A DNA stretch of 37,643 nucleotides, taken from an uncultured virus (IMG/VR IMGVR_UViG_3300011815_000001) (Duplodnaviria; Heunggongvirae; Uroviricota; Caudoviricetes). The notes under the pieces were generated by a model. It did no database searches, was not told the DNA's origin, and saw only the letters and a program-made list of their open reading frames with translations. The translations under genes were made by a program, and so were the position numbers. The stretch lies in IMG/VR virus record IMGVR_UViG_3300011815_000001; one strand, 5' to 3'. Shown piece by piece: positions 2,440-26,761 of this stretch; position 1 is the stretch's first letter, and every line of letters starts with the position of its first letter.

Positions 2440-2522
2440 TTTGGTGATTTGGTGAGGTAGGGAAGGGTGAAACTTATGTAATATTGATTAAAATTTCCAA
2501 ATAAAATTGTAGATTTATTGGG

Positions 2523-3563
2523 TTAGAAAAGTCCATCTAAATCATCATCATCTTCACGTAAATCATAGAAATTCTGGGTCGTGCTAATATCCGCATGACC
2601 TAACAATTTACTCACTGATTTAATGTCAGCGCCCTCAGATAAAGCGATTGTGGCTCTACTACCGCGGAGGAGGTGAACATTAACTCTACGATTTGCGATG
2701 TCGCTGATTATGTCTGTGAACCAATAGTTTAGTGCAGAGACATCAACTTGTCTGACTTCACCTCTATATCTGGATACGAAAATATAAGGATTATCATCTT
2801 CGCCACGAACCTCTAACCATTTTTTAATTGCAACAATGGATTCTTCGTCAATAATAATAGGTCGTATATTGCCTTGCTCACCTTTACCTTTTGTTCGGAT
2901 AGGGGCTGTTTTGTACATTTTAGTTGGATTACCGTCTTTATCTAATATAGGCTCAGAATGAATTACGTCTTTCTTTAGCTGAATTAGCTCAGAGCGACGA
3001 CAAGCTGATGCATATAAAATCTTAATAGCGGCTAAAATTTGTAATTGACCATCTTCTTCTAATGTTTCACAGATTAGTTGATACTCATCTTTACTGAGTG
3101 CTACTTTATTGTAAACTTTATTAGGGGATGGATTTTGCACCCCTTCTACAAAGTTTCTGAAAGTCTTGAAATCATCCTCATCTTCATAAAAATTAATCAG
3201 ATACTTGTTTAAAGATGAAATAGAGCTTCGCTTCATTTTAATACCATTAGAAGAAACGCCTCGTCTTACCAAACTATTTTGGAATCGCATAAAGTCTTTC
3301 TTTTTAATTTCAAAAACCTTTTTGTTATTAAGTGTTTCGTATACCCAATAATAAAATTCTCGCAATGCTGATTTATATTGGATTGCTGAACGAGGGGAGA
3401 GGTGAGTAGATTCTTCTAGAAATTCATTTACTAGGTTTCGGTTAAACGGATTTACTTTATCCCACATTTCCTCAGTTACTGGTTTATTCTTGGTAGCTCG
3501 ATCACGTAGTTGATTAGTTTCGAATTCTTTGCTGTTTAGTTCTTCTGTCATTATGTATATCAT
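2523..3563 (-). CDS. Tyrosine recombinase/integrase (SPbeta YomM-like position in the tail cluster)
   Basis: Catalytic set R (CRRSE), K (RTKGKG), HxxR (HLLR), H (LLGH), Y (QNFY), plus an N-terminal SAM-like domain. Confidence 0.9.
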   Translation of the reverse strand: MIYIMTEELNSKEFETNQLRDRATKNKPVTEEMWDKVNPFNRNLVNEFLEESTHLSPRSAIQYKSALREFYYWVYETLNNKKVFEIKKKDFMRFQNSLVRRGVSSNGIKMKRSSISSLNKYLINFYEDEDDFKTFRNFVEGVQNPSPNKVYNKVALSKDEYQLICETLEEDGQLQILAAIKILYASACRRSELIQLKKDVIHSEPILDKDGNPTKMYKTAPIRTKGKGEQGNIRPIIIDEESIVAIKKWLEVRGEDDNPYIFVSRYRGEVRQVDVSALNYWFTDIISDIANRRVNVHLLRGSRATIALSEGADIKSVSKLLGHADISTTQNFYDLREDDDDLDGLF

Positions 3564-3580
3564 CCTTTCTTACAATATAT

Positions 3581-3609
3581 AAAAAAGAGATGACTAAATC
3601 TGTCATCTC
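3581..3609 (-). terminator. Intrinsic terminator after the GIY-YIG gene
   Basis: Minus strand reads GAGATGAC-agattta-GTCATCTC-TTTTTT. Confidence 0.75.
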
Positions 3610-3613
3610 AGTG

Positions 3614-4678
3614 CTATACAGCTTTAAATGTATTATTATTAATTACGTTTTCCTCTATAGGGATTCCCGCTAAAATATAAGCATTTATTAAATTACCGAA
3701 ACGATTAGTATAAAAACTCGTTGAACGAGTAATATCGCTTTTATCAATTGTTCTAGATGTAATGTAACCATCAATGTTATATAGCTCTTTTAGTTTAAGT
3801 AACGAATCTGCATTCTCTTTTTGTTTAAGTGACTCTTTGTCAAAATTGAATTCACACTTTAAATTCTCCATAGACTTGTAATGCCTCATTACAACAGAAA
3901 CTGATGGGAGGTTGTTATTTTTAGTATCTTTTAATTCGATGTGATTTGGGAATCTTCCATGCGTTTTAATAAAATCTTTAAATTTTAAATACACATCCTG
4001 TTTACTATATTCTTTTCTCTCATACAACTTCTTATTTCCAACAAAATCAAATAAATCGGATTCAATTAATGCATTTTTAAAACTGCCAAATTGGTCAATG
4101 TAAACATTATATGATGGATATTGGATATTATTTGCAAAGTCTCTTTGTGATGGAGTTCTGCCTTCTGTATAATAAAACTCTTGCATAAATGATACTAGTT
4201 CGTCTTTGACATACTTTCTATTTGCATTACCGATTTTACTTTTAGTTTCCTCATTAAAAATAAAGCGTTCAACACTTGTGTCTGGCATATTCTTATTGTA
4301 TCCGAATTCTTTTTTATGAGAGCCATAAAAATTAATCCAGTACAACTCTCTACTAGTTAGTGCTTCGACTTCACATTCTTCAATAATAGAAAAACCGAAA
4401 TGATGTAGTCCATGTAAATTGTATGCGCTCTGAAGATGTTCGTTTCCGTGTTCATTTTTTAATAAAAGTCTTTTATGCTCAGATAGACGTTTCTTTAAAT
4501 CGACGCTTTGACCAATATATACTTTATTGTTAATTAAATTAGTTATTTTATAAATACCTGATACTCTTTTTGGTGAATAGTCCTGTTTGCAAATATCGCA
4601 ATACTTTCTATTGTGAGTAGTTTTATTAAACGAATTTATTCCACATTTTTCACACATTTTCTTTTCCATATGTATCAT
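3614..4678 (-). CDS. Freestanding GIY-YIG homing endonuclease with an N-terminal Zn finger and about three C-terminal homing-endonuclease-associated repeats
   Basis: SGIYKITNLINNKVYIGQS, R (KKRL), E (SRELYWI) and GYN motifs. CxxC...CxxC at the N-terminus. Repeated GRTP/GRFP...PS...FG units. The start may be 4669. Confidence 0.88.
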   Translation of the reverse strand: MIHMEKKMCEKCGINSFNKTTHNRKYCDICKQDYSPKRVSGIYKITNLINNKVYIGQSVDLKKRLSEHKRLLLKNEHGNEHLQSAYNLHGLHHFGFSIIEECEVEALTSRELYWINFYGSHKKEFGYNKNMPDTSVERFIFNEETKSKIGNANRKYVKDELVSFMQEFYYTEGRTPSQRDFANNIQYPSYNVYIDQFGSFKNALIESDLFDFVGNKKLYERKEYSKQDVYLKFKDFIKTHGRFPNHIELKDTKNNNLPSVSVVMRHYKSMENLKCEFNFDKESLKQKENADSLLKLKELYNIDGYITSRTIDKSDITRSTSFYTNRFGNLINAYILAGIPIEENVINNNTFKAV

Positions 4679-4871
4679 ATCCCTTGTAGATTATTTTCCC
4701 CATTTTATATACAAAGAAAGGATAGCTAGGGAATTGCTATCCTTATCGATTGAGTTAATTAGGCTCAATCTATTCTCAGTGAATAGTTTTTTCTATTCTT
4801 TAAATCTACCTATACGAAATGCGAATAAACTTAAAGAATAGAAAAAATCAATTAATGATTCTTCTATTCCA

Positions 4872-4900
4872 AATATACAGTTAAATTAAGTAATTGTCAA
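4872..4900 (-). promoter_or_regulatory. sigmaA-type promoter for the endonuclease
   Basis: TTGACA (4900-4895), 17 bp, TATATT (4877-4872). Confidence 0.7.
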
Positions 4901-4954
4901 TGGTTTATTTAATATTAATTATTAAACTCAATATATAACCCCAATGATGTTGAA

Positions 4955-5692
4955 TTATGTACGAGGTACAAACATAATTTTACCGATTTCATCTTCTCCA
5001 AGTGGGTTAAGAGCTGAGAAGTTGATTTCAGGAGTGTAAACTGAACCATTTTCTAATGAAATATCGAACTCACCAGAAGGTAGTGTCTCAGGGAAAATGA
5101 AATACACATCTGCAACAACTTTAGCGGTTTCAACGTCATATGCGATAGTTTTATAAGTCACTGCATATTTAGTCGAGAACTTAGTTGCATCAATAGATAC
5201 TGACTGCCCTGTAACTTCCTCTTTCCAGAATACGAAAGTAGTGTCGCCTTCAGCTAAATCAGAGCCTACTGGAACAGTAATTACGTTAGTAGTAACTGCA
5301 ACTACCTCTTGTGAGCCATCCTTGTCATTTAGACGAGCTGTTGTTAATCCTGCTTTTGCCGTCTTAAGAGTGATTTCTAAAGTTCCTCCATTATCCACTA
5401 CAGTTACTTTTTCTGATTTTGTTACAGTTGCAGTTCCTGCTTGATCTACCTCTACACCTTGAGTCATTGCCCAATACTCTAAATCTGCCACCGCCGACCT
5501 CATAGACAGGTCGATGCTCTTGTCACTACGGATTTTAAAAAGCTTTTTGTTCCCAATGCCTCCCCGTAAGTCTTCTTCACTGATAGAACCTGCTACTCCA
5601 GCTAATTGCGCTTCAGCGTTTAATACAATTTTACCACTAACTAACGACTCGATTGTAACATCTGCCGTATCTTGAATTACTACTTTACCCAT
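4955..5692 (-). CDS. Major tail tube protein (YomU-like)
   Basis: 245 aa, beta-rich and acidic, with codon usage typical of high expression, GGAGG SD, and a position after the head-completion genes. Confidence 0.65.
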   Translation of the reverse strand: MGKVVIQDTADVTIESLVSGKIVLNAEAQLAGVAGSISEEDLRGGIGNKKLFKIRSDKSIDLSMRSAVADLEYWAMTQGVEVDQAGTATVTKSEKVTVVDNGGTLEITLKTAKAGLTTARLNDKDGSQEVVAVTTNVITVPVGSDLAEGDTTFVFWKEEVTGQSVSIDATKFSTKYAVTYKTIAYDVETAKVVADVYFIFPETLPSGEFDISLENGSVYTPEINFSALNPLGEDEIGKIMFVPRT

Positions 5693-5723
5693 TTTTAAAT
5701 TCCTCCGTTATGTAATATTTATT

Positions 5724-6455: not shown

Positions 6456-6456
6456 T

Positions 6457-7669: not shown

Positions 7670-7673
7670 TTCC

Positions 7674-8434: not shown

Positions 8435-8454
8435 AAATAATCAACCCTTTCTAG

Positions 8455-9057
8455 TTATTTAATCAGGATTGATAAGTCAACATTTAAAAGAGTTTCAATT
8501 GTTTTAATTTTACGGAAGTCAACTAGTGTCTCATTCTCAATTAACTCTTTAGCTCGACTAATCACTGATTTCTTAACTCCATTTGGTAATTTAGGCAGTA
8601 ACTCTTGTAGCTCAAAATTAGACTTATCAAATAAATTATCTAATTCATCAACTGTGTATAAATTTTCATATAGTTTGCCAAGGTTTAAAATATCAATAAC
8701 TTCATCATCTTCAATAGCAATTAAGCAATCTTGAATAAATCGAGGGTATTGAGCTTTCATTGTGTTAATTTCACCATATGTAAGATACTCAATATCTCCG
8801 TAAGCACCCCATACATATTTTGAGTTTGTAGCCTTTGATACGTATACAAGTTTATGATTAGTTAATGATCGAACAGGGATTAACTCGTTTAATTCAATTT
8901 GATTAACCTTTTTACGAATAGATTTAGCCTCAGGCTTTACTTCTTCAACTACTTTAGTTTCTACCACTTCTGCTACTACGTCTTCTTTAATTGCTTCGGG
9001 CTTCGCAACAGTTTTACGTGTACGTGGAGCACGAGTTGTTTTTGCTTTTTCTGTCAT
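8455..9057 (-). CDS. YonA-like protein
   Basis: 200-aa ORF directly after the capsid gene, with a low-complexity N-terminus and AGGAG SD. Confidence 0.55.
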   Translation of the reverse strand: MTEKAKTTRAPRTRKTVAKPEAIKEDVVAEVVETKVVEEVKPEAKSIRKKVNQIELNELIPVRSLTNHKLVYVSKATNSKYVWGAYGDIEYLTYGEINTMKAQYPRFIQDCLIAIEDDEVIDILNLGKLYENLYTVDELDNLFDKSNFELQELLPKLPNGVKKSVISRAKELIENETLVDFRKIKTIETLLNVDLSILIK

Positions 9058-9096
9058 TATTAAATTCTCCTTTTATCAATTTATTATGTAATATTA

Positions 9097-9123
9097 AAAG
9101 AAGAGAGGGGATTAACCCTCTCT
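9097..9123 (-). terminator. Intrinsic terminator after the major capsid gene
   Basis: AGAGAGGG/CCCTCTCT stem followed by TCTTTT on the minus strand. Confidence 0.65.
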
Positions 9124-9130
9124 AAATTTA

Positions 9131-10153
9131 CTATTGTAAGTTGTAGATACCGAATAATGAGCTGAATACTGTGTTTGTACCAAACTTAGTTAGGTATAAG
9201 TATTCGAATGACATGTCATTGTTTTCTTGCTCGTTTTCAGTTTGTTTAACTAGGTCATCACCTTCGTAAACAACTTTGATGAAACGGTCATTGTTAGTAG
9301 GTAATACTAATAATTGCTTGTCATCATATGCGAATTCAAAAGTACCTGCTTTGTGAGCAACTGGTAATTCAACAAGTGTCATACCCAAGTAAGTACCAAC
9401 ACGTCCAGTTTGGTTTAATTCGTTTTTCATTGAATCTGAGAACCATTGTACGTTTGTACCGTTAGTGATTTTGCTTAAGCCAGTTTTAGTACCTACAACT
9501 ACTGGAGCTGATCCAGAAGCCGCTAATACATGGTTGTAAAGTTCGATTAACTCTTCTTCTGCATATACACCTGAAGTTTGGAATTCAGAAGGTAATTGAG
9601 CCGCAGATGCAACGAAAGTAGCTGAAACTTCTTCATAAATTTTAAGGCGTAAAGCTTTAGCAATTTTGTTAACTAAACGCTCAAATGATACACGACCAGA
9701 AAGGAAAGCGAAGAAATCAGCATATACACCGATAGAGTAAGCTTTAGTATCAACTTTGAAAGTTGTACCGCCTTCTGCTTTTTGACGACGAATGTTCCAG
9801 TGGTTGCCTGAGTGTTGAGAAACTGTTAATACAGCATCATCTTCAAGGTAGAATTCGTTAGTGTCACCTAATGCGATGTTACGAACATCAGCGAATTGCA
9901 TGAAGAACTCATCTTCTTCAACTGATTTTAAGAATGATTCAGTAATAACTTCTGTTAATACTTCGAATACTAATTCACGATTTTGAGTGTTACGCATATG
10001 CTTTTTAGTTGGTTTGTCTGTACCTAAGATTTCAAAGAAAGCTTCACGAATACGTGTGTCAATATCTTTGCCTTCCGAAAAGTTTTGTACTACTTGAGGG
10101 TTGCGAACGTAGTCCACACACACTAATTTTAATGCTTCTAATTTGTTTGTCAT
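9131..10153 (-). CDS. Major capsid protein (YonB-like)
   Basis: 340 aa with strongly biased codon usage and GGAGG SD. Order is portal, protease, decoration, capsid. Confidence 0.8.
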   Translation of the reverse strand: MTNKLEALKLVCVDYVRNPQVVQNFSEGKDIDTRIREAFFEILGTDKPTKKHMRNTQNRELVFEVLTEVITESFLKSVEEDEFFMQFADVRNIALGDTNEFYLEDDAVLTVSQHSGNHWNIRRQKAEGGTTFKVDTKAYSIGVYADFFAFLSGRVSFERLVNKIAKALRLKIYEEVSATFVASAAQLPSEFQTSGVYAEEELIELYNHVLAASGSAPVVVGTKTGLSKITNGTNVQWFSDSMKNELNQTGRVGTYLGMTLVELPVAHKAGTFEFAYDDKQLLVLPTNNDRFIKVVYEGDDLVKQTENEQENNDMSFEYLYLTKFGTNTVFSSLFGIYNLQ

Positions 10154-10202
10154 TATGTAATTCCTCCACTTGATATGTTATATTGTTTTTATGTAATATT
10201 AA

Positions 10203-10706
10203 TTAAACGCCTTTTGTTTCTAATACTGCGTAGATAGTACCTGTGTGAGTAACGTTTACTGCTAAAGCTCCGCCAACTTTTTCGATTGCTACAACTTCAA
10301 AGTAAGTACCAGTTGCAGGAGCGTCAGCTACCACATCAAGTTTATAACCGTTAGGAACAATGATATTTCCTTTTGCTGGTTCATTAATGAATCCTTCTAA
10401 TGAAATTGAAACTAATTTGTTTAATTCTGGACGGTAAGCGCGAACTACTTCGCCAGCTTCCATACGGTATTCAGACTCCATACCAGTGCCAATTTTGTTG
10501 TTGTCTTTTACGATTGCAGGGTTACCGATAATTACTACTGAGTCACCTGAAGTTGCAGTTAAAGCTCCACGAACATCTAAGTTAGCAGGTTCTACTGCAC
10601 CTAATTTTGCTACAAAGCCGTTTTCGAAGTGTTGACCTGCTGGTACACGCACTGAAAAAGTTTCTTTTAATTTGTCGTCTAAACGTAATACTGAATGTTT
10701 TGCCAT
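10203..10706 (-). CDS. Capsid decoration/cement protein (YonC-like)
   Basis: 167-aa beta-rich ORF between the scaffold and capsid genes, GGAGG SD. Confidence 0.6.
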   Translation of the reverse strand: MAKHSVLRLDDKLKETFSVRVPAGQHFENGFVAKLGAVEPANLDVRGALTATSGDSVVIIGNPAIVKDNNKIGTGMESEYRMEAGEVVRAYRPELNKLVSISLEGFINEPAKGNIIVPNGYKLDVVADAPATGTYFEVVAIEKVGGALAVNVTHTGTIYAVLETKGV

Positions 10707-10753
10707 TATTGAATTCCTCCGTTAATTATGTAATATTATTTGTGAAGCTTATA

Positions 10754-15460: not shown

Positions 15461-15724
15461 ACCTTGACCTCGACTCGCAATATAAGTCATAAAATTAAAG
15501 TGCATCATTGCCCATAGCAATATTTGTTGGAACAATTTTAATTCCACGCCTAAATAATCTCGAACAAACCTGTGCGGATTTGCTCTATAGAAAGAAGTCC
15601 ATTCACCAACACCTTGCATAAGACGTTCTGACTTTGTACCTTCTTTTCTAAATTTGCGAGATCGCTTGAATATATTCGCACTGTTTTTATTCTTTTTTGC
15701 GCTGGATTCAAAAAATCCCATCAA
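15461..15724 (-). CDS. Terminase large subunit, exon 1 (YonF-like)
   Basis: YRANPHRF...LKLFQ Q-motif region ending at ASRGQG. 88 codons, giving a spliced product of about 596 aa. Confidence 0.9.
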
Positions 15725-16599: not shown

Positions 16600-16627
16600 T
16601 TCCTTTTATCCATTGAATTAACTTAAT

Positions 16628-16656
16628 AAAGGACTCCTACCTAAGTAGAAGTCCTC
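16628..16656 (-). terminator. Probable intrinsic terminator after the ClpP-like gene
   Basis: AGGACT..TAC/GTA..AGTCCT hairpin followed by TTATT on the minus strand. Confidence 0.5.
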
Positions 16657-16692
16657 TGTAAATTAATTATTAAGTTTTAATGTTATGTAATA

Positions 16693-17397
16693 TTAATCAA
16701 TTAAGTGGTCATACATTTTATATTTAGTCATTTCATCAAATGTGATATACCAATCCAAATTGCTTTTACGCTTCTTTTTAAGTTTTTTCTTTGGAATTTC
16801 TGTATTTTCTAGAATGAAGTTATCCAATTGTTTTTGCAAATGTTTATAATGCTCAATTTTATTAATCATTTCACCCAATGTTTCAACATCAGCACCAGCT
16901 CTTAAAGAGTGATAAAGAACAGAAGAATATCGTGAAGCATACTTAACATCACAGCTTAACCAAAGCGGAAGACACATGCTCATACAAGTACCCATTAATA
17001 CACCAATCACAGGAGTTTCGGATGAACGAACAGTACTCAGAAGCGAGAATCCGCGATAAATCTCTCCGCCAGCCGAATCAAAATAAATAATAATTGGTTG
17101 CCGATCTGCTACTGCGATATCATAATCATCTCGATTGAACTTGTGAATAAGCATAATAATATGACTAACTGTATCCAAAGTAACTTCTTCACTAAGATAT
17201 AGTGTACGATTTAATACCATCTCAGTTTCAAGTAGTTCGCCAATATTAATAGGGGAGTCGTCTGTTCCTAATAAAGTCTCTAATTGTTCAGCCGTTAACT
17301 CAACAGTTTCAATATCTGAAGTTTCTTCTACCTCTCCCGCATTATTATCAATTTCAGCTTCTACTTCAGCTTGTTGCTCTTCAACTTTTTCACTCAT
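16693..17397 (-). CDS. ClpP-like serine protease
   Basis: PIIIYFDSAGG motif, nucleophile region CMSM, His in VLYHS, and DWY..F.E...Y...D near the C-terminus. Confidence 0.8.
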   Translation of the reverse strand: MSEKVEEQQAEVEAEIDNNAGEVEETSDIETVELTAEQLETLLGTDDSPINIGELLETEMVLNRTLYLSEEVTLDTVSHIIMLIHKFNRDDYDIAVADRQPIIIYFDSAGGEIYRGFSLLSTVRSSETPVIGVLMGTCMSMCLPLWLSCDVKYASRYSSVLYHSLRAGADVETLGEMINKIEHYKHLQKQLDNFILENTEIPKKKLKKKRKSNLDWYITFDEMTKYKMYDHLID

Positions 17398-17424
17398 TCC
17401 AACATCTCCTTTTCTCCATGACCA

Positions 17425-17568
17425 TTAGCGGTCTTTTAATTTGTCATTCATCTTGTATGTCCATGCTTCAGCTTTCTTCCTTAAATCTTCAGTACTCACA
17501 TACCATTTAACCCAAAGCCACAAGCAGAAATGGTCAAACTTAAATACTAAATTTTTAATCCATTTCAT
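17425..17568 (-). CDS. 47-aa Trp-rich small protein (absent from the ORF track)
   Basis: GGAG SD, then MKWIKNLVFKFDHFCLWLWVKWYVSTEDLRKKAEAWTYKMNDKLKDR. It fills the gap between two genes. Confidence 0.6.
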   Translation of the reverse strand: MKWIKNLVFKFDHFCLWLWVKWYVSTEDLRKKAEAWTYKMNDKLKDR

Positions 17569-17600
17569 ATTTTATCTCCGTTCAGTTATGTAATCTGTAA

Positions 17601-18785
17601 TTAAAATTCAATATAAAACGTAGCTTTACGACCCTTTTCAGTAAGCCATAGCAATTTCTGATGTGCTTTACCTGTCAAACGGGCATCTTTAGCATAATCA
17701 TCTACGCCACCAAATGATCCATTTACAATTAAATCAACACCATGAATTTCATTCTCAAAGTTTTTATGAATATGTCCTGCAAATACAGCTTTAGGCTTCT
17801 TAGCAAACATTAAAGTCATATCCTGTACAACTTTGCCAATTCCATCTAAATGTCCATGCACTCCGTAATATGTATTACCAAGGATTTCAGCAACAATAAT
17901 TTCTGAATCTAAGTCATTGTTATGGAATGTAATGTTTTCAAACTTTTCAAGTCGAGCTTGCATATACCAAACAATAAATTCATGGAATGATTCTGTACGA
18001 ACTTCCTCTTCTTTACGAGCAGAGACACGATCATGATTACCTTTAACATTATAATAATGTACATGCTCAAAATTATTAGCTAGTACGGAAAGTAGTTCTG
18101 CTAATGCTTCAGCAACTTTTTGTGTTGATACTACTGCATTCTCAGTTTCAGCAAGTTTAGTTAGACGGTGGATTACGCCACTAATTACATCTCCTAGCTC
18201 AAATACATGAATTTCCTTTGTGTTAGTTAACTTTTGATATTCTAATGTTTCGTGAGTTAATTGATTTAAACGTTGATAAAATACTTCGTCATTGTATGTA
18301 TTCCAATGGTTTTTAGTAACCATTCCCTTGTGTAAATCACTTAGTAGGAGAGTTAGTGCTCCATTTGAGTTAGATGGAAGGGAAGGTTTCATCCATTGCA
18401 AAGGTTTATTCGTATTCATATCATTTTTAATTTCATCTAATAGCTTTTTAAGTAAGTTATCTAATCGAGCTTCATGTGTCATATATTTGCGAACTTCTCT
18501 ACGCTCATCAGAAATCTGAACTTTTAACTTAAATAATTCTTTTTCAAGTTCTTTCATTTCAAGTAATTGCTCGTTATCCAGTCCATTTTTAAACTTGTTC
18601 TCAAAGTATTCCTTCATTTCTAAGAAGAAGAATGAACCTTTACGCAATGTGTCTCTATGTATATTTAGTTTTAGAGCTTCGACGATATCTTGCCAATCAT
18701 CATTGATAACTCCAGTTAGTTTATCTTCAATTAGGCGGTACTTCCATTCCGTAGCACTTTCATGTTGTAGTTTTTCTAAAGTCAT
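17601..18785 (-). CDS. Calcineurin-like metallophosphoesterase (YonJ-like)
   Basis: Motifs LSDLH, LGD, GNHD, HGH and GHIH after an N-terminal coiled coil. Confidence 0.85.
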   Translation of the reverse strand: MTLEKLQHESATEWKYRLIEDKLTGVINDDWQDIVEALKLNIHRDTLRKGSFFFLEMKEYFENKFKNGLDNEQLLEMKELEKELFKLKVQISDERREVRKYMTHEARLDNLLKKLLDEIKNDMNTNKPLQWMKPSLPSNSNGALTLLLSDLHKGMVTKNHWNTYNDEVFYQRLNQLTHETLEYQKLTNTKEIHVFELGDVISGVIHRLTKLAETENAVVSTQKVAEALAELLSVLANNFEHVHYYNVKGNHDRVSARKEEEVRTESFHEFIVWYMQARLEKFENITFHNNDLDSEIIVAEILGNTYYGVHGHLDGIGKVVQDMTLMFAKKPKAVFAGHIHKNFENEIHGVDLIVNGSFGGVDDYAKDARLTGKAHQKLLWLTEKGRKATFYIEF

Positions 18786-18797
18786 TTAATCACCATC

Positions 18798-18995
18798 CTA
18801 TTCTTCAACAGGTGCTAATGTACTAGACGCATTAATAGTAAAATCTAGCCGACCCTTAGTGGATAATTCCTCAAAAATATCGTTGATTGAAAATGTTTCA
18901 ACCGTTTCATCATTTTTCCCGTACTCATGGATTAATCCATTTTCAAAATCAACCTCTGCATTTTTGAATGCGAAATCCTTTTTTAGTTTTGCCAT
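18798..18995 (-). CDS. YonK-like small protein
   Basis: 65-aa MAK...FKNAEVD...IHEY.K pattern directly upstream of the YonJ-like gene, AGGAG SD. Confidence 0.65.
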   Translation of the reverse strand: MAKLKKDFAFKNAEVDFENGLIHEYGKNDETVETFSINDIFEELSTKGRLDFTINASSTLAPVEE

Positions 18996-19019
18996 ATTAA
19001 ATCTTCTCCTTTTCTCAAT

Positions 19020-19035
19020 TGTTCCATGTGGAACA
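19020..19035. promoter_or_regulatory. parS-like palindrome
   Basis: TGTTCCATGTGGAACA against the Spo0J/ParB consensus TGTTNCACGTGAAACA (2 mismatches). Intergenic. Confidence 0.55.
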
Positions 19036-19081
19036 TATATTAATTATGTAATATTCATTTTAAAACAGAGGTAGTATTTAC

Positions 19082-19241
19082 TTCCTCAAAACCAACCTAA
19101 GAGCGATGCTAAGGAGTTCATTATAGAAAGAGGGGGAGGGTAACTATAATGAATTTAATATCTAATCTAAGGGAGGAGAGATTATAACAGAATAGGCTCA
19201 AGGATTATTCTTTTATCATCTCTTAGATTGGTTTTCAGGAA
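19082..19241. ncRNA. Candidate multi-branched structured RNA
   Basis: A 22-bp closing stem (2 mismatches) encloses three hairpins whose loops are GGAGG/GGA on plus and CCUCC/UCC on minus. Confidence 0.5.
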
Positions 19242-19242
19242 A

Positions 19243-19276
19243 TAAAAAGGGCAATAGAAGATACATTTCTACGCCC
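19243..19276 (-). terminator. Probable terminator after PIN-PhoH
   Basis: GGGC-TAGAA...TTCTA-GCCC stem with bulges, then TTTTTATTT on the minus strand. Confidence 0.55.
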
Positions 19277-19301
19277 GCAATTATGTAATATTTAATTTAA
19301 G

Positions 19302-20549
19302 CTACATACTTTCAGCCATATCAGCTAACTTACTACGAAATACGTTTTGAAGCTCCACTTCACCATATAAGTCAGTACCTCTAAATACTTCACTCATACG
19401 CTTCATGCCGTTATCATTTTCATAAGCTATGTCATCGATTTGTAAGTGGAAATCTCCATCAACGATAATTTTGGTATTACTTCCTAACCTCTGAAGTCCT
19501 AATTTAAGTAAATTTCGGCTTAAATTTTGGGATTCGATGCACCAGACTATTACCTTATTGTCTCCAGTATCATAGCCACGAAGGTTAGCAAAAGTCTGTA
19601 ATTCTAGTTTACCTTCATCAATAAACTGTTGAATAACAAACTCATCTCCAAATTTAGGGAGTAATGTTCCGACATTTTGTAGGATTTTCTCTAATTTAGT
19701 TCCTTTATAGAACCCCATTGATGCACTATCCTTAGTTTCTGCTGGATTCACAAAGATAACAAGCTTATATCCTTCACGCTCTACTAGTTGCCAAGCAGTA
19801 TGTAATGCCAAGATTGATTTTCCCGAACCAGCTCTACCTCGAAGGGAGGTTACTTGATTAGATAAAATACTATCTATAGCCATTACTTGGAATTCATCTT
19901 TAGGAGATATGGGCTCAAATTGTCCACTTGTAATAGTTTGACCCAATTTGCCTTTTTCATCTTTAAGTGACACAGTTTTTTCACCTGTCCACTTAACAAT
20001 GTCAAGTAATTCTCCGTCTACTGAATCATTGATTACTGCATATTCATTAATAATTAATCCATAAGAATTCATTTCCTTATTAATTAAGTTTTCAATATGA
20101 GATTCTTCATCAATATCAACAATTTTAAAGCCTTTGTGCTCAATGTAATCATCTTTCTTATTAACATTGACTAGTTCGATGTTGTAAAGTTTAGCCTTGT
20201 CTCTAAGCAACTTGTCATTAGTGATAATTCCGTAGTTATTTTCCACACAGACTTGAATTAAAATATTGTCAACATAGCTCTTATCCCATTCGTCAGAAAG
20301 ATCAAAGCTGTAATCTTTTAAATTTACGTGAATATGTTCATTCTCATCTAATGCAGTTTTAGCTTGGCGAATTTCATATTGTAATTGTCTGTCTGATTTA
20401 CGTGTTAATTCTAAATGTTCAACTTCACGTAAAACATGAGATGAAATTACAACATTGTATTCTTGAAGAACTTGTGGATATCCAATTAAAGTGTTCGTAT
20501 CAACTAAATATAATTTTTCATCATTATTCATGATTAGCCCGACTCCCAT
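19302..20549 (-). CDS. phoH: PIN-domain PhoH-family ATPase (PhoH2-like)
   Basis: PIN residues LVDTN, E, VDN, TND. Walker A GRAGSGKS, LRG, ESQN, GDFHLQID and a terminal RS.LA motif. Confidence 0.88.
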   Translation of the reverse strand: MGVGLIMNNDEKLYLVDTNTLIGYPQVLQEYNVVISSHVLREVEHLELTRKSDRQLQYEIRQAKTALDENEHIHVNLKDYSFDLSDEWDKSYVDNILIQVCVENNYGIITNDKLLRDKAKLYNIELVNVNKKDDYIEHKGFKIVDIDEESHIENLINKEMNSYGLIINEYAVINDSVDGELLDIVKWTGEKTVSLKDEKGKLGQTITSGQFEPISPKDEFQVMAIDSILSNQVTSLRGRAGSGKSILALHTAWQLVEREGYKLVIFVNPAETKDSASMGFYKGTKLEKILQNVGTLLPKFGDEFVIQQFIDEGKLELQTFANLRGYDTGDNKVIVWCIESQNLSRNLLKLGLQRLGSNTKIIVDGDFHLQIDDIAYENDNGMKRMSEVFRGTDLYGEVELQNVFRSKLADMAESM

Positions 20550-20552
20550 TCA

Positions 20553-20584
20553 TAGAGAGGGTAGGGGAGTAATAACCCCTCTCT
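20553..20584 (-). terminator. Hairpin between HU and PhoH, overlapping the PhoH ribosome-binding region
   Basis: AGAGAGGG/CCCTCTCT inverted repeat with a weak U tract. Confidence 0.4.
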
Positions 20585-20639
20585 GTTATTTTATTTTTAT
20601 TTATAATTATGTAATGTTAATTTTGAAAAATATGTATTA

Positions 20640-20996
20640 TTAAGCTTGCTCTTTATAAGCATCCTTCATAGTCTTAGATTGAGTGAATCCTACTGATTTC
20701 GAAGCCGCAATATCAATTTGAGCTTGTGCTTTAGCATCTTCATCAGATACACCTTGAGCTTTTAGCTCTTTTAATTTAGCAGGGTTTAAACCTTTACGAG
20801 CTTTCTTATTTTTAACTTTTAATGTGCCAATATTTCCAAGTGGAACATCGTTACCATTCAGTAGAGCATCTTCAATTGCAAAGAATACATCCTCAATAAA
20901 TGGTTCTAGTTCTTTGTTTGAAATTTTCTCACCAGTGCGTTCCTCGTAGTTTGCTTTTACCAAGTCACGTAATTCTGCTTTTTTTAATTTTGTCAT
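20640..20996 (-). CDS. HU family DNA-binding protein (YonN-like) with an extended arm tip
   Basis: V.L..IGTLKVK.KKARKGLNP...IAASKSVGF..SK.MKDA signature. Confidence 0.9.
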   Translation of the reverse strand: MTKLKKAELRDLVKANYEERTGEKISNKELEPFIEDVFFAIEDALLNGNDVPLGNIGTLKVKNKKARKGLNPAKLKELKAQGVSDEDAKAQAQIDIAASKSVGFTQSKTMKDAYKEQA

Positions 20997-21215
20997 ATTT
21001 ATTTTCTCCTTTTCCTCAGTGTATCATTTAAGATACTTTATGTAATATTTGTTTTTTGGTGGGGAAATTTCAACTTTTCTTGCGTGTACTTTAGTTTTAT
21101 TCCTTTATTGTAAATTCTTCGAAATGTGCTTAAAAGCCTTATATATCAAGGTTTGTGGCACTTTAGAGAAGACCAAATATGACATCGGAGTTGATAAATC
21201 AACGTTTCTAAGGTG

Positions 21216-23855
21216 TTAGAAAGCTAAATTATTTCTCATATACTCACGTTGTCTCTCTAATCGCTTTTCATATGAGCATTTTTCACAGTATTTGATGTTA
21301 CCGTTAGTTACTTTAATTCTAATTCCGCAAGACTCACACTGCTTAGTCCCTTTTAAATTTTCACGTAAATTACTCACCAACTCTTCACCGAAACTGTTCC
21401 AAATAGTATCCTTATTAATTAGCTTAGTATTAATAAAGAACTCTTTCACTAATACATTCGCAACTTTTTGAGAGTCAGGCTCAATTTTTAGTAACTCGTC
21501 TCGCATTAATTTAAAGAAGAATATTCTCCCTTCCTTAGAAGAGGTTATATTATTGTCTCTGAATAGCTTGCGCTTGTTACGTTCAATTTCTTTATATCTA
21601 CTAATAACTTTATGATTCACGTAAGTAATATCACCAACAATCAGCATTTTTGGATCATATTCTCCTGCGATTTCCTCAAATTTAATGTTTTTATTTGGAA
21701 CAATCTTTCTCAGGCGATTTACCGTACTGTTATTAAGTGGCTCAACATTAGTTTTATCTTTCTTCTTTGCCTCTTTAAAGAAATGGGGGACTTTACCTTT
21801 GATAGCTTTTCGAATACGCTCATCCACTTCGGCAGGGCGTTTAGGCATATACAGTGTTTTAGCATAATCAATGATATAGTTGTTTTCTGCTGTAAGCCAT
21901 TTAACCACATCTATGTCGATTTCATTACTCGAATTAAATATTTTAGTAATATTGTTGCTCACTTCGCCAATGTTTGCTTTAAAAGCGGCAATCAATGAGT
22001 CATATATTTTAGTGCTATCGACATGCACTGGTTCAGCAACACCCATTTCATAATAAAGAGGAACGATACCTTTCATATTCCTTTTGGCTACTTCGATAAA
22101 GGTCTCATTCTGTATTGCTAGAATTTTATCACCGTCGTTGTCGAATTGGAGGATGCGTGAAATAGGATCATGAACACTAGAATACATCCCTTGAGTTATA
22201 AACCATTTTTTCAATTCTTCATTTTTAACAATGGTGCGAATTGCATGTTCTTTATACAGGTGAGGGGAACGCAGTATATCTACTTCGCCCTCTTTAAACA
22301 CACTAGTATAAACATCTTTTCCACTTAGAAGTCCTTGTGGGTTTTCAATTCCTAAAAATAGTTTTTCACAGAAAGCGTACAAATCTGGAACAATATAAAG
22401 GTATCTGCCGTTAACACGCAATTTACCAGCTCTTGCGTCATTAACTAAAGACTTTTTCTTATCTTTAATGATTTTTTTAGAATGTTCATCACTCAATAAT
22501 TCAGGATAAATAGATAAGGCTTGCTGATAGTGGTTCATTCTTTTATTTCCTCTATCTACGCCTAAAACACGCAACATCGTTTCCTTGTCGTTTCCGATTT
22601 TCTCAATATCCGCAACTGTATCTTTGGCTATAAATTTTAGCTCTTTGTTGCTGATGTCAGTAAGTGTTTGAAGCATCTGATAATTTAAATTAGCTTCTCC
22701 ACCTAAATCCTCTTCATTCAGTTTGGTAGCCTGGCATTTATGAAGTTTGAACTTTTCCTTATAATCATCCCAATTTTTATAGTATTTCGCCATTTTAAAC
22801 TGACTTTTAGTGAAAATTACCTCTATTTTGTCATCAATTATGTCCCATTCTTTGCCGTAAATATCAGTAATCTTTGTATTCTCATGTTCTATTGCGAACT
22901 TGTCAAAAGCGAAAGGTACTAAGAGTCCCTTAACGAACGGCAGTCGTGTCATGAATGTTTTCTTATACTTTGAAGCTAACACCATTCCACAACCATCTGT
23001 GTGCTCTATGTTCACTGTAAGTTCTTTGCGTGTAATTTCATATGTATCTCTATCAATGTAATCAAATTCCGAAGTAACAGGGGATGATAAATCAGGCACT
23101 ACAATAGCTCTATCAATGTCAAAGTTATTCCATTTAGTACTTGCGGAAGTGATTAAAGCCTTATAAGCTAATAATTTATTAACATTACATCCACCTTTGG
23201 AGTTGATTTCTTCAATTGAAAGTCCACAAGTTAAAGTATTTTCATATTCTAACCATAATGATTCTTTAATGAATACTGTTTTCTTTGTTCTGATTTGTCC
23301 TGCACTTGATGAGAAATAAACATACTTTTCTCCATTATGTATAAATCCATTATTAATAATGTCTTCTAAGATATTGAAGTAAAATGCTCTAACTACAAAT
23401 AAGTTTTCGGATATATCATCTATTTTCATTCCAATAGTGCGAGTTAGAGCTGAATCGAAAATACCGATAATCTTATTAACAGTTAGCGTCTCCTGACGTA
23501 ACTCACGAACCCCGTTAAAATTGCCAAACTGTTCTTTTAGCTTCTCTTTTAATTCTTGAATATTGTCATTGATAAATTTAACTCTTTTGCGATTTTGTTT
23601 TTTCCAGTCAATTAAATATTTTCGATAAATAATTAATTTTTCAAGACGTTCATTATCGCTTTTGTCTTCAATTAACTGTTCAATTTCTTTCTCTATGGAA
23701 TCAAATTTATCCTTAACCCTTGTTGTATTTGCTTTGCTTTTCTTTTTAAGTAAATGACATCTTAATAACTGCTTATGTATCTCGTATTCACAATCGGTAT
23801 AAAAACATTCAGTCCCCAAACTGTAAATGTATACCTGTTTGTCTAATCCTTTCAA
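21216..23855 (-). CDS. yonO: YonO-like single-subunit two-barrel RNA polymerase
   Basis: 879 aa with HTDGCG, RSPHL and catalytic QFDNDGD motifs and a C-terminal CxxC...CxxC. Upstream of HU and the late operon, as in SPbeta. Confidence 0.88.
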   Translation of the reverse strand: MKGLDKQVYIYSLGTECFYTDCEYEIHKQLLRCHLLKKKSKANTTRVKDKFDSIEKEIEQLIEDKSDNERLEKLIIYRKYLIDWKKQNRKRVKFINDNIQELKEKLKEQFGNFNGVRELRQETLTVNKIIGIFDSALTRTIGMKIDDISENLFVVRAFYFNILEDIINNGFIHNGEKYVYFSSSAGQIRTKKTVFIKESLWLEYENTLTCGLSIEEINSKGGCNVNKLLAYKALITSASTKWNNFDIDRAIVVPDLSSPVTSEFDYIDRDTYEITRKELTVNIEHTDGCGMVLASKYKKTFMTRLPFVKGLLVPFAFDKFAIEHENTKITDIYGKEWDIIDDKIEVIFTKSQFKMAKYYKNWDDYKEKFKLHKCQATKLNEEDLGGEANLNYQMLQTLTDISNKELKFIAKDTVADIEKIGNDKETMLRVLGVDRGNKRMNHYQQALSIYPELLSDEHSKKIIKDKKKSLVNDARAGKLRVNGRYLYIVPDLYAFCEKLFLGIENPQGLLSGKDVYTSVFKEGEVDILRSPHLYKEHAIRTIVKNEELKKWFITQGMYSSVHDPISRILQFDNDGDKILAIQNETFIEVAKRNMKGIVPLYYEMGVAEPVHVDSTKIYDSLIAAFKANIGEVSNNITKIFNSSNEIDIDVVKWLTAENNYIIDYAKTLYMPKRPAEVDERIRKAIKGKVPHFFKEAKKKDKTNVEPLNNSTVNRLRKIVPNKNIKFEEIAGEYDPKMLIVGDITYVNHKVISRYKEIERNKRKLFRDNNITSSKEGRIFFFKLMRDELLKIEPDSQKVANVLVKEFFINTKLINKDTIWNSFGEELVSNLRENLKGTKQCESCGIRIKVTNGNIKYCEKCSYEKRLERQREYMRNNLAF

Positions 23856-23917
23856 TTAATATCCTCCCATTATTCAATGTTAATTATTATGTATAAATTA
23901 ATTTCTTACCTTATGTA

Positions 23918-24190
23918 TTAATCCCCATTGACGATACTTAATCGACGATAATACTCACCATCACACCATAACTTCATTGTTTCTTTAACATATTCCAGAT
24001 CATCTTCGTTACAGCTTCCTTTATAAGATAACTCTTCATATGCTCTTAATTCAATCTCATCACAAATTCCTTCTATGTATAGCTCTTCTAAAAATTCTTC
24101 AACTTCCTGATATTCATTTACAACAGCTTCATCAAGCTCTCCAAAATACTGTAATTGCGTTTCCTCTAATAATTGTTTGTTACGTTTCAT
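23918..24190 (-). CDS. Acidic hypothetical protein upstream of yonO
   Basis: 90-aa ORF with AAGGGG SD. Confidence 0.6.
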   Translation of the reverse strand: MKRNKQLLEETQLQYFGELDEAVVNEYQEVEEFLEELYIEGICDEIELRAYEELSYKGSCNEDDLEYVKETMKLWCDGEYYRRLSIVNGD

Positions 24191-24310
24191 TCATTTTCCC
24201 CTTTTCGTTGTGGTTTAGTTTTATTTGTTTTGCCATCAAATTCACCCCTTATAATAGTATTTATGTAGCGAATCAAGTAATTTATATTGCATAAACTTGA
24301 TGACAATATC

Positions 24311-24339
24311 AATATATCATGGACAAATACGACTGTCAA
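24311..24339 (-). promoter_or_regulatory. sigmaA promoter for the yonO operon
   Basis: TTGACA (24339-24334), 17 bp, extended TGa-TATATT (24316-24311). Confidence 0.75.
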
Positions 24340-24369
24340 TAGTTTTAAAAATTAATATTGAATAAATTC

Positions 24370-24398
24370 TTGTTTATTTTAAAAGTGCATGTTATATT
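24370..24398 (+). promoter_or_regulatory. Divergent sigmaA promoter for the helicase
   Basis: TTGTTT, 17 bp, extended TGt-TATATT, with a GAGGAGGAG SD downstream. Confidence 0.55.
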
Positions 24399-24443
24399 AA
24401 GTGTGCAAGACAATTACCATATAAATGAGGAGGAGAACAGTTA

Positions 24444-26744
24444 TTGAAAAAATTAAATGTAAAAATTAAAAAGGTGCTCTACTATAAAAACGGATGGGGA
24501 ATATTCGGGTGTATTCCTATTACTCAGTCTGAAGGAGCTCCTGTAGTGTTAAATGATTTTAAAAACTTCACTATTAAAGGAAACACATTAGAATTATTCG
24601 AGGGGAATACATACGACATTGAAATAGAAGATGAAGCTGAAAAGTCCGACAGAGGAGACAGTTATAATATCATTAAAGTACATGTCCCTAAGATTACAAG
24701 TAGTAAAGCTCAATACGATTTCTTAAAGAATCTAATTGCTACGAGCCACTACAATGCAATAGTAGAAGTTTATCCTCCTAAGAGTGGACTTAAGATTCTG
24801 GATGCTATTAAAGGAAATGAAATTGATCTGACTAAAGCAAAAGGAATACAAACCAAGACTGCTGAGAAAATCAGAGGAATTGTTGTTGAGAAAGAAGAGT
24901 ATATCTACATCTACAATAAACTGATTCCTCTAGGTGTATCTGAAAACATGATTGATGTAATTGTTAATCATTACGATACAATGGAAAGAACCATCTATAA
25001 AATTGATGATTCATTGTATAACCTGTGTGAAGTTAAAGGGCTAGGATTTAAAAAGGTAGATGGGTATGCTTTAGCAGGCGGAGAAGATAAGGAAGGTTTC
25101 AAACGAATGGAAGCTTGCTTGAATTATTTAATCCATGAATATGCTACTGAAGGTCATTCTTGGACATCATACGAGGAAATTAAAGAAAAGGCTGTGGAAC
25201 TACTTGATATTGATGGTTACAACTTAGATGTATATTTATCTTCATTGGATACAGTCGGGTACACAAATCTAATGAATGTACATGATGGACAAATTACAAG
25301 TAAGTATTACTACAGAATTGAAAAGGAATTATATGAAGACTTAAAGCGATTAGATGACACCTATAAAGTTCAAGCTGACAGTAAAATACTTAATGAAGCC
25401 ATCTCAAAAGCCCAAACGGAATTAGGAATTACATATACAGAAGAACAATTAAGTGTCATTAAAGAATCATTTGAACATGGTGTATATATCATAAATGGTA
25501 AAGGCGGAGTTGGTAAGTCGCTCCTAATGAAAGGTGTAACTGAAGCTTGTGATGCCCTAGGATTAGATTATCAAGCGATTGCATTAAGTGGGCGAGCGGC
25601 ACAGTTACTTACCCTTAAAGGAATTAACGCATCAACAATTCATAGACTTTTAGGCTATAGTGGAGGAAGATTTGTACATAATAGCGAATTTAAATTATCA
25701 CAAGATGTAATTATTCTGGAAGAAGCATCAATGGTTAATGCTCAACTGTGGCATTCAATTGTAACTGCAATGAAAGATGGTTCAAAATTAATCATTGTAG
25801 GTGATAGTGGACAGTTAAGTGGGATTGGTAACGGAGACGTATTACGTGATTTACTTGTTAATCCTAAATTCAATGGCAGAGAGTTAATGCAAATACATAG
25901 ACAAGCGCAAGATAGTGGAATTATTGAAGTAGCAGGGAATATCCGTAATGGAGAAAATGTTACGGGTTATAATTGGGAGCTGTCTAATTCATACGGAGTA
26001 AATAGTGATTTATTTATCTTTACATACAACGACAAAAACGATTTATTAAATAATGCAGAAAATATAATTAAGAAACGTATGATGGAACTAGATGAGACTT
26101 CTGTTTTAGATTTTCAAATTATTGTATCAAACAAAGCTAGAGGAGACTTAAGTACAGTATCCATTAATAAATACTGCCAAAGAATCTATAACAATTTAGA
26201 TAAACCTTTTGTGAAGAATCATACACATGAATTCCGTATAGGAGATAAAGTCATTAACAGTGGGAATAAGTACAGTGTACATATGTATCAAAGTGTTATG
26301 CATTATAAAAATGATGAGCCAAATATGATATATGATGCAGAAGAAGGGGATTATGTTCCTGAAAAATATTCATTGTATAATGGTACTATTGGAATTGTAG
26401 TGGATATTAATACGGACAAAGGGAAAGAGTCTGTGCTGGTTAAGTACGAGGGGATGGACGGATACATTAGAATGGGCGCTAAAGAGTTACCTGATTTAGA
26501 TTTAGCGTATGCTTTAACAGTCCATAAATGCCAAGGGATGAGTATTCGTAATGTATTAGTGCTATTGGATTTTGGAGCATTTAAATTATTATCTAAACAG
26601 TTAGTCTATACAGGAATTACACGAGCGTCTGATAAATGTGTATTGCTTGCAGAAAACAATGCATTAATGAAAGCTTGCAATGTCGATAATTCATCTTTAA
26701 GACGTACCTTCGTTGGTCAGTTCATTCAGATGGAAAATAAATAA
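24444..26744 (+). CDS. recD2: RecD2-like SF1B helicase
   Basis: HhH motifs (KGI, KGLGFKKVD), Walker A GKGGVGKS, STIHRLL, LEEASM, VGD..QL, HRQ, YALTVHKCQG and YTGITRA. Confidence 0.92.
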   Translation: MKKLNVKIKKVLYYKNGWGIFGCIPITQSEGAPVVLNDFKNFTIKGNTLELFEGNTYDIEIEDEAEKSDRGDSYNIIKVHVPKITSSKAQYDFLKNLIATSHYNAIVEVYPPKSGLKILDAIKGNEIDLTKAKGIQTKTAEKIRGIVVEKEEYIYIYNKLIPLGVSENMIDVIVNHYDTMERTIYKIDDSLYNLCEVKGLGFKKVDGYALAGGEDKEGFKRMEACLNYLIHEYATEGHSWTSYEEIKEKAVELLDIDGYNLDVYLSSLDTVGYTNLMNVHDGQITSKYYYRIEKELYEDLKRLDDTYKVQADSKILNEAISKAQTELGITYTEEQLSVIKESFEHGVYIINGKGGVGKSLLMKGVTEACDALGLDYQAIALSGRAAQLLTLKGINASTIHRLLGYSGGRFVHNSEFKLSQDVIILEEASMVNAQLWHSIVTAMKDGSKLIIVGDSGQLSGIGNGDVLRDLLVNPKFNGRELMQIHRQAQDSGIIEVAGNIRNGENVTGYNWELSNSYGVNSDLFIFTYNDKNDLLNNAENIIKKRMMELDETSVLDFQIIVSNKARGDLSTVSINKYCQRIYNNLDKPFVKNHTHEFRIGDKVINSGNKYSVHMYQSVMHYKNDEPNMIYDAEEGDYVPEKYSLYNGTIGIVVDINTDKGKESVLVKYEGMDGYIRMGAKELPDLDLAYALTVHKCQGMSIRNVLVLLDFGAFKLLSKQLVYTGITRASDKCVLLAENNALMKACNVDNSSLRRTFVGQFIQMENK

Positions 26745-26761
26745 TACATATTACATAATTA

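Follow-up and report, generated by a model that had tools for sequence, protein, structure and literature searches.

Among the known relatives of the cellular RNA polymerases, YonO, encoded by phage SPbeta, is the simplest. The available text of Forrest et al. (PMC5467207) describes the SPbeta late genes as transcribed as one long RNA, gives SPbeta position 2225998 as the sole mapped YonO-dependent 5' end and, in 2017, left the YonO promoter to be determined; a review repeats the single-operon statement for the late genes, and the literature that we searched yielded no paper defining a YonO promoter. Here we analyse a stretch of 37,643 nucleotides from an uncultured virus of the Caudoviricetes (IMG/VR record IMGVR_UViG_3300011815_000001; hereafter the window, meaning this DNA at its full length), which encodes a YonO-type polymerase and carries a repeated 12-nucleotide word, AATATTACATAA in its sense-strand form, between its late genes. 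An initial annotation of this DNA had read the word either as a promoter element of the YonO homologue or as an RNA-level signal such as an antitermination or processing box. The promoter branch is the best supported, indirectly, by placement, orientation, the room left for a start site, the absence of adjoining sigma-A promoters and the evidence of relatives, and we see about an even chance that the word serves the phage's own polymerase as core promoter and site of initiation. In kind it is most likely a lineage-specific promoter, which would be a new case of a known sort of signal.

A second described system bears on any repeated word in this phage group. For the SPbeta repressor MrpR, the available text of Kohm et al. 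2023 (PMC10516654) reports ten peaks in chromatin affinity purification sequencing (ChAP-seq) at promoters that carry a 15-bp element, SPBRE; the yonP promoter ahead of yonO is among them, and none of the ten peaks named there lies in the late operon. That text names the promoters and, as far as it goes, gives no motif letters, and the letters used here (...ACAAAnAnAAAWAATATGTATATAAT, compared with the word as AATATGTATATAAT) were derived by us from those promoters. The derived element occurs in two settings, either ahead of a -35 box (aimR, yonX) or abutting the ribosome-binding site (RBS; yopM, yopV).

The window resembles SPbeta in both its polymerase and its gene order. The product of 21216-23855, which had been taken for a YonO homologue, proves to be one, with 51.1% identity to SPBc2 yonO across residues 3-861 and, equally, 51.1% identity to the annotated RNA polymerase of Psychrobacillus phage Perkons; the metal-binding motif DNDGD is invariant in both alignments. 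The nearest database relatives are a protein on a 2.9-kb contig (71% identity) and Lysinibacillus proteins (63-65%). Four cysteines near the C terminus (residues 840-860; CxxC, 13 residues, CxxC) are invariant in 14/14 and 19/19 homologues, and the zinc-ribbon-like tail that they suggest could contact DNA. Gene order follows the SPbeta late region through HU/yonN-like, YonK-like (a weak Pfam match), yonJ-like phosphoesterase, Clp-protease-like, terminase, portal, capsid-like and YomM-like recombinase genes, and the opposite end of the window is marked as early by an ArdA gene and small open reading frames (ORFs). A YonO protein scan of viral contigs found no close relatives, and a nucleotide search of positions 19000-24000 against phages returned a 69-nt PhoH stretch as its sole match. 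A 14-mer taken from the window was uninformative, with at least 118 matches, each on a different contig except that two loci had two adjacent or overlapping matches.

The word itself is a real, strongly non-random feature of this DNA. An exact recount reproduced every position that had been listed for the 12-mer and its 9-mer core (Table 1). In plus-strand form, TTATGTAATATT, the 12-mer has nine exact copies, all on that strand. Dinucleotide-preserving shuffles average 0.06 copies and never exceed one, so that none of 100 reached nine. The core, TTATGTAAT, occurs 14 times against 1.6 expected (again, 0/100 shuffles reached the observed count), made up of the nine 12-mers, the plus-strand copies at 10153, 17586 and 20607, and minus-strand copies at 26750 and 33575. 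The enrichment over a shuffled background that had been proposed as a check is thus present for both words. The genes in 1-24,190 lie on the minus strand, which makes AATATTACATAA the sense form there. The base following CATAA in 13 copies is t in seven, c in three, a in two and g in one, giving CATAAT in 7/13, and by inspection a TTTAAT-like box stands 2-4 nt upstream of the word in six of nine copies.

The distribution of the word follows transcription. Intergenic DNA makes up just 16% of the window, and within 1-24,300, where the genes are on the minus strand, its TACATA cores number 17 in sense and one in antisense orientation. Weaker sense cores lie at 20631 (TAATACATA), at 23888 and 23912 (ATACATAA) and, on the plus strand, at 27860. 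The strand of the word switches with the two plus-strand genes, the intergenic regions after 26744 and after 27822 both carrying the core on the plus strand. The flip described near 26748 is therefore present, although the flipped copy, CATATTACATAA at 26747-26758, agrees with the word at 11 of its 12 letters. The early region (29.9-37.6 kb) has no 12-mer and one weak core at 36543, and the statement that it lacks an intergenic copy survives a 9-mer that had been overlooked at 33575-33583 (minus strand, antisense to the local genes), because that copy lies inside the 3' end of the ORF 33565-33819. The listed sites are likewise intergenic or at a gene boundary as described, with the qualification that the copy at 10153 overlaps an RBS and start codon and is possibly fortuitous. 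Inside genes, TACATA occurs 28 times on the sense strand of coding sequence against 13.5 expected from synonymous shuffles (standard deviation 3.0) and TACAT 67 times against 49.5 (standard deviation 5.8), and the complementary words stand at expectation (16 against 15.3 for the complement of TACATA), so that within genes TACATA is in roughly twofold excess on the sense strand.

Table 1. Copies of the repeated word and the polymerase features of the window (window coordinates; strand on which the feature reads in the sense direction)
Feature	Position	Strand	Context
Exact 12-mer	2474..2485	-	~34 nt before start of gene 1822-2439
Exact 12-mer	5708..5719	-	Ends 1 nt before RBS of virion protein gene 4955-5692
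Exact 12-mer	9084..9095	-	Directly after terminator-like hairpin and T-run 9102-9123; 12 nt before RBS of gene 8455-9057
9-mer core only	10153..10161	-	Overlaps RBS and start codon of capsid-like gene 9131-10153 (GGAATTACATAATG); possibly fortuitous
Exact 12-mer	10189..10200	-	35 nt before start of capsid-like gene 9131-10153
Exact 12-mer	10726..10737	-	5 nt before RBS of gene 10203-10706
Exact 12-mer	16683..16694	-	Overlaps stop codon of Clp-protease-like gene, followed by 13-bp hairpin 16628-16657; heads packaging block (15721-16599 through 10754-12010)
Variant CAGATTACATAA	17586..17597	-	6 nt before RBS of small ORF behind yonJ-like gene
Exact 12-mer	19044..19055	-	48 nt before YonK-like start; relative place is the head of the SPbeta late operon
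Exact 12-mer	19281..19292	-	9 nt past PIN-PhoH stop; hairpin 19249-19276 with U-run starts 4 nt after
Variant AACATTACATAA	20607..20618	-	Between HU-like stop codon and hairpin 20554-20584; weaker TAATACATA ~13 nt upstream, near 20631
Exact 12-mer AATATTACATAA	21038..21049	-	First copy after yonO, 167 nt past its stop; 41 nt before HU/yonN-like start; small hairpin 1 nt after
YonO-type single-chain RNA polymerase gene (879 aa)	21216..23855	-	End-to-end match to PHROG 8308
Two ATACATAA variants	23887..23920	-	33 and 57 nt upstream of yonO start; core at same place in relatives
Sigma-A-like promoter	24311..24339	-	TTGACA, 17 nt, TATATT, with TG; ahead of small ORF and yonO
Flipped copy CATATTACATAA	26747..26758	+	Between RecD-like helicase gene and gene 26836-27822, both +; 16-bp hairpin 26760-26796 1 nt after
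Weak core TACATAA	27860..27866	+	After terminator-like hairpin 27796-27829

The immediate surroundings of the copies constrain where an RNA could start. The gap between word and RBS is 1 nt at 5708, 5-6 nt at 10726 and 17586, 12 nt at 9084 and 20-43 nt at 10189, 21038, 19044 and 2474. Because the copy at 5708 ends 1 nt before its RBS, a start site would be limited to the inside of the word or its last bases, and the three copies that sit 1-6 nt from an RBS leave no room downstream for a -10 box of its own or for a promoter that depends on an activator. Nor is the word built like a sigma-A promoter, having no -35/-10 pair at 16-18 nt and no constant last T of the -10 box, and a sigma-A-like promoter (TTGnnn, 16-18 nt, -10 box) follows 0/37 WTACATA copies of the window. 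Sigma-70-type sites are not enriched in the window (70 where shuffles gave 88, and 98 where they gave 112), and the site at 24339-24311 is the likely entry of the host polymerase to the polymerase gene.

Hairpins accompany several copies. Four had been described as lying between a stop codon and a hairpin (16683, 19281, 20607 and the flipped copy), and folding bears this out, with -19.2 kcal/mol (z -5.6) after 16683, -20.1 kcal/mol (z -5.3) after 26747, -13.6 kcal/mol (z -2.8) after 20607 and -11.6 kcal/mol (z -1.8) after 19281. By inspection, only the hairpin at 19281 has a clear U-run, with a weak one at 16683. At 26747, 21038 and 19281 the hairpin sets in 1-4 nt past the word, where the 5'-terminal stem of an RNA starting at the word would sit, and in two places the order is reversed, a terminator preceding the word (9123-9084 and 27796-27866). 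The proposal of an antitermination or processing box finds no support in these arrangements, given that copies also lie directly after terminators and that only one of the four hairpins has a clear U-run, and it is further weakened by seven copies in relatives that stand upstream of a -35 box and hence outside the RNA of that promoter. Rfam gave no match at gathering score in the window, and relaxing the cutoff to E 1 brought up no credible match in 16000-21300 or 15000-15900.

To see how far the word extends, we collected 80 genome and 80 metagenome loci around YonO homologues. The four loci closest to the window among them (L082-L085; YonO 63-64% identical) carry a related, oriented element of 22-24 nt that ends in ATACATAA, with the longer consensus of about aTTTTAAaT, 4-6 nt, ATAAATACATAA; in L083 alone ATAAATACATAA has seven copies and no antisense copy. 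Their 14.1 kb of intergenic DNA holds 55 sense and six antisense cores. The element occurs either directly before an RBS or ahead of a sigma-A -35 box, the latter accounting for 4/34 copies in L083, and the copy that follows yonO in L083, L084 and L085 comes, as judged from its flanks, after a C-run and a T-run.

Identity-bin counts were made on the 114 loci of at least 8 kb with a long match, shorter loci being dropped. Intergenic cores number 55 sense and 6 antisense at YonO identities of at least 60% (4 loci), 7 and 8 at 55-60% (5 loci), 37 and 22 at 50-55% (11 loci), 95 and 40 at 45-50% (29 loci), and 102 and 76 below 45% (65 loci). The position just ahead of the polymerase gene is conserved in many loci: among 138 loci with usable, non-duplicate DNA upstream of yonO, WTACATA lies within 120 nt of the gene in sense orientation in 34 and in antisense in two, down to about 41% YonO identity (8/11, 7/18, 9/57 and 10/52 by identity bin). 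This bias may derive in part from the general sense-strand excess of the core that is seen within genes too. Two distant loci (YonO 42-43%) have a different oriented word, GGAATTAG(T/C)TAA, in three copies each (L026 at 4986, 5830 and 15905; L027 at 1376, 3875 and 12782), mostly before an RBS and once 175 nt past the yonO stop; this is possibly a lineage-specific counterpart.

Phage Perkons, whose YonO is 51% identical, offers a complete genome of 136.8 kb. Its intergenic ATACATA words number 33 sense and two antisense in the early arm, and eight sense and no antisense in the late arm. The core is oriented with transcription genome-wide in Perkons, without specificity for late genes, and the premise that only late genes carry the word needs qualifying. 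Of 24 scored copies with an RBS and start codon behind them, only two reach a sigma-A score of 9/12. At each end of the genome a copy also precedes the first sigma-A-like promoter, 4 nt before its -35 box, which argues for a signal read on DNA because no gene lies upstream there. Perkons also has a second oriented word, TATAATTAAG, found 15 times in sense orientation in early-arm intergenic DNA, with ATAATTAAGT six times in the late arm; the second word is at times fused with the core (ATACATAATTAAGT). A term search of the Perkons paper found no promoter or RNA polymerase analysis.

Based on these observations, a plausible course of events can be outlined. Host sigma-A polymerase would make YonO from the site seen at 24339-24311, and YonO would then initiate transcription at every copy of the word, either within it or at its 3' end. 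The resulting RNAs would have either short leaders that start just before the RBS, or 5'-terminal stem-loops that could stabilise the RNA. In this way the copies would split the late region of about 21 kb into blocks, with additional copies in front of the genes for scaffold-like and capsid-like proteins, a layout that resembles that of T7 promoters. YonO, which by a published description lacks the flap domain used in hairpin termination, may for that reason read through the hairpins behind four of the copies, at which transcripts of the host polymerase would stop. A YonO promoter would explain both settings of the element, tandem promoters serving genes needed early and late and lone ones serving late genes, and would likewise explain the orientation, the extra scaffold and capsid copies, the copy before yonO (as feedback) and the 5'-terminal hairpins.

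A number of results weigh against this assignment. We placed the measured SPbeta start at 30452 of our SPbeta locus (L001) through a 4.2-Mb single-contig genome (G041) that is 100% identical over 2225750-2226250, assuming the same numbering; the published primer-extension primers (supplementary file 1 of PMC5467207) bracket 30330-30573 of the locus. The start is an A within a structured leader, where a conserved helix has its foot and the preceding letters read ...TTAGTCGGAT, and because no WTACATA is found there, the one measured YonO start gives the word no support. A search of the window for the surrounding 15-mer, allowing three mismatches, found no match, and no word recurs in the SPbeta late region. 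Among relatives, core enrichment does not fall smoothly with YonO identity, being nil in the 55-60% bin, and seven copies (two in L082, four in L083, one in L084) are separated by exactly 7 nt from a TTGnnn -35 box downstream, a setting that also fits an operator. The early arm of Perkons has the core at its highest density, and 12 of the 25 copies that have an RBS and start codon behind them lie 0-6 nt from the RBS, a proximity that might point to a function in translation or at the RNA level. Of the sequencing runs listed as containing the stretch 15000-24400, none is recorded as RNA, all entries being DNA or of guessed type. Finally, the word resembles the derived SPBRE in 11/12 letters with one gap (AATAT(G)TATATAA against AATATTACATAA), and in a Bacillus pumilus-type relative the sigma-A spacer ahead of yonP and yonO contains AATACAAATTACATA. 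In SPbeta, two structured-RNA matches lie in the yonN-yonK gap (L001 29410-29475 and 30720-30829), namely a DUF3800-VIII RNA, which at 47.5 bits exceeds its gathering score, and just after yonN a skipping-rope RNA that at 29.6 bits stays below threshold; the mapped start falls between them.

The alternative that survives best places the signal on RNA, as an endoribonuclease site cut before the RBS of the long late transcript or as a leader element that binds protein or enhances translation. It draws on the sense orientation of the word and its position, mostly 1-43 nt before an RBS, on the close RBS spacing in Perkons together with the rarity of good sigma-A promoters there, and on the single long late RNA of SPbeta, which leaves room for processing. 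The same spread of 1-43 nt tells against it, as a distance that varies, and so do the copies that sit after terminators, the seven relatives' copies lying outside the RNA of the promoter that they precede, and the Perkons copies that come before the first promoters of both arms. UACAU is the cleavage word of MazF/EndoA in Bacillus subtilis; the core contains it, and Perkons has a gene annotated as PemK/MazF. If cleavage matters, its word should be avoided in coding sequence, and the core is instead enriched in the sense strand there, which makes a cleavage signal a poor fit and, through the excess of both TACAT and TACATA, led us to reject MazF processing. The coding-sequence excess, the copies behind terminators, those outside the adjoining promoter's RNA and those before the first Perkons promoters all favour a signal on DNA, which fits better than one on RNA, and we regard the latter as unlikely.

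Less likely again is a compact promoter for the host RNA polymerase acting with an unrecognised phage factor, in the manner of the T4 late genes, with AATATT or CATAAT as the -10-like part. AATATT agrees with TATAAT at four of six positions, including A2 and T6, and CATAAT is found in 7/13 copies; moreover, CATAATTAAG of Perkons resembles a variant of the abundant TATAATTAAG, and SPBRE, the closest similar word, forms part of sigma-A promoters. Against this, the key last T of the -10 box is missing in 6/13 copies and there is no -35 box at 16-18 nt. The choice of -10 matters as well: reading CATAAN as that box would put the start inside the RBS behind the 5708 copy, whereas AATATT would put it at the end of the word, which the spacing allows. 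The factor itself was looked for and not found, with no match to sigma-factor families among the 45 window ORFs scanned and no sigma factor or sigma-like gene in the annotation of the fetched SPbeta parts or of the whole of Perkons. A 328-aa protein that carries the PHROG name 'transcriptional regulator' was rejected as a sigma factor or late activator, since it has sub-threshold winged-helix matches only and no match to a solved structure.

The least likely of the three is an operator, the equivalent of SPBRE, for an MrpR-like master repressor or another DNA-binding regulator of the phage, which would keep late genes silent during lysogeny or serve as a roadblock. The likeness of the word to the derived SPBRE and to AATACAAATTACATA, which recurs in degenerate copies ahead of yonN and yonK in the Bacillus pumilus-type relative, keeps this possibility alive together with the two settings of SPBRE, and MrpR does bind at the yonP promoter ahead of yonO, the gene before which the core is conserved in relatives. 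The fixed 7-nt spacing of the seven copies in L082, L083 and L084 would also suit an operator, and a non-palindromic site of 12 bp may suit one monomer of a recombinase-fold protein. The operator explains only a minority of copies, however, since 0/37 in the window and 4/34 in L083 adjoin a sigma-A-like promoter, and the SPBRE core at up to two mismatches matches none of the 13 window copies. The strong copies all lie in the late structural region, the part of SPbeta for which the available text of PMC10516654 names no MrpR peak, and the roughly 41 oriented intergenic ATACATA words of Perkons, mostly without promoters, are too many and in the wrong places for a master repressor. Repressors and their operators tend to diverge quickly, but loci down to about 41% YonO identity share the core. 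No MrpR homologue is encoded in the window, which covers part of the phage only, and its YomM-like recombinase is not MrpR-like (E 0.48).

A bolder form of the promoter assignment would hold that the WTACATA element is the ancestral core promoter and initiator of YonO-type polymerases in phages of the Bacillota, kept before yonO for positive feedback down to about 41% identity, with SPBRE as a derivative. We think it improbable. If it were true, a master repressor and a phage polymerase would compete for one DNA word, and control of lysogeny would act directly on the promoters of the polymerase. More immediately, nine identical 12-mers in one phage are ready material for testing how YonO recognises a promoter. 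Should the word work, it would provide the first YonO promoter consensus, show whether so minimal an enzyme recognises DNA alone, and yield a compact orthogonal transcription system that could be used in Gram-positive bacteria.

Several neighbouring genes deserve mention in their own right. The large terminase subunit is split between minus-strand ORFs 15455-15724 (89 aa) and 13659-15188 (509 aa), which match consecutive parts of PHROG 15503 and lie about 266 nt apart with no Rfam match between them; the gap may be a small intron or the remnant of a mobile element. A homing-endonuclease gene with GIY-YIG and HNH_repeat domains (3614-4678, minus strand) sits within the late region and has a strong sigma-A-like site of its own at 4872-4900 (TTGACA, 17 nt, TATATT). 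A PIN-PhoH fusion gene (19302-20549, minus strand) lies between the HU/yonN-like and YonK-like genes with one copy of the word on each side, in the position that a 1.7-kb non-coding leader occupies in SPbeta. In the early region, an IS605 OrfB/TnpB-like gene (31985-33190, minus strand) combines OrfB_IS605 with a Cas12f1-like TNB domain. The YomM-like tyrosine recombinase (2523-3563, minus strand) is 37% identical to SPbeta YomM; an alignment to XerA shows that it keeps the catalytic residues (R, HxxR, H and Y), and we therefore rejected it as a degenerate DNA-binding factor.

Among described systems, a close one is the YonO start of SPbeta, with which the window shares the polymerase family and the gene order. 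The copies at 20607, 19281 and 19044 fall between the HU-like and YonK-like genes, the last of them just before the YonK-like gene, at the point that corresponds to the start of the SPbeta late operon, and the SPbeta start lies, by inspection, at the foot of an RNA helix, as hairpins follow some copies here. The differences are equally clear, in that SPbeta has one mapped start about 1.3 kb before yonK, with a structured leader and upstream letters (...TTAGTCGGAT) unlike the word, whereas the window has 13 copies in its late region and no long leader. SPBRE is the closest in letters, being an A/T-rich oriented word (AATATGTATATAA against AATATTACATAA) that is likewise found just before RBSs and in a copy ahead of the yonO operon, and the word of the relatives also stands just ahead of sigma-A -35 boxes. 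It differs in lying within or abutting strong early sigma-A promoters, a setting that none of the 37 window copies has, these being placed among late structural genes.

Two further comparisons concern design. The T4 late promoter, TATAAATA, is read by gp55 with the host core polymerase, and RNA starts 6-7 nt after the box. Like the word, it is a single short A/T-rich box without a -35 element, repeated before late genes; unlike it, it needs a phage sigma-like protein, of which none was found in the window, and its start offset would fall inside some of the RBSs here. The class II and III promoters of T7, T3 and SP6 and the late promoters read by the non-virion polymerases of phiKZ and AR9 are near-identical short words, set in one orientation between genes, several to each late region. 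The polymerase of the window differs from that of T7 in being an unrelated single-chain two-barrel enzyme, and its putative promoter word is shorter (12 nt; 22-24 nt in the relatives). With the T7 group and with phiKZ and AR9 the window shares the denser placing of the words before capsid genes and a polymerase gene that lies in the same genome and would be made by the host enzyme.

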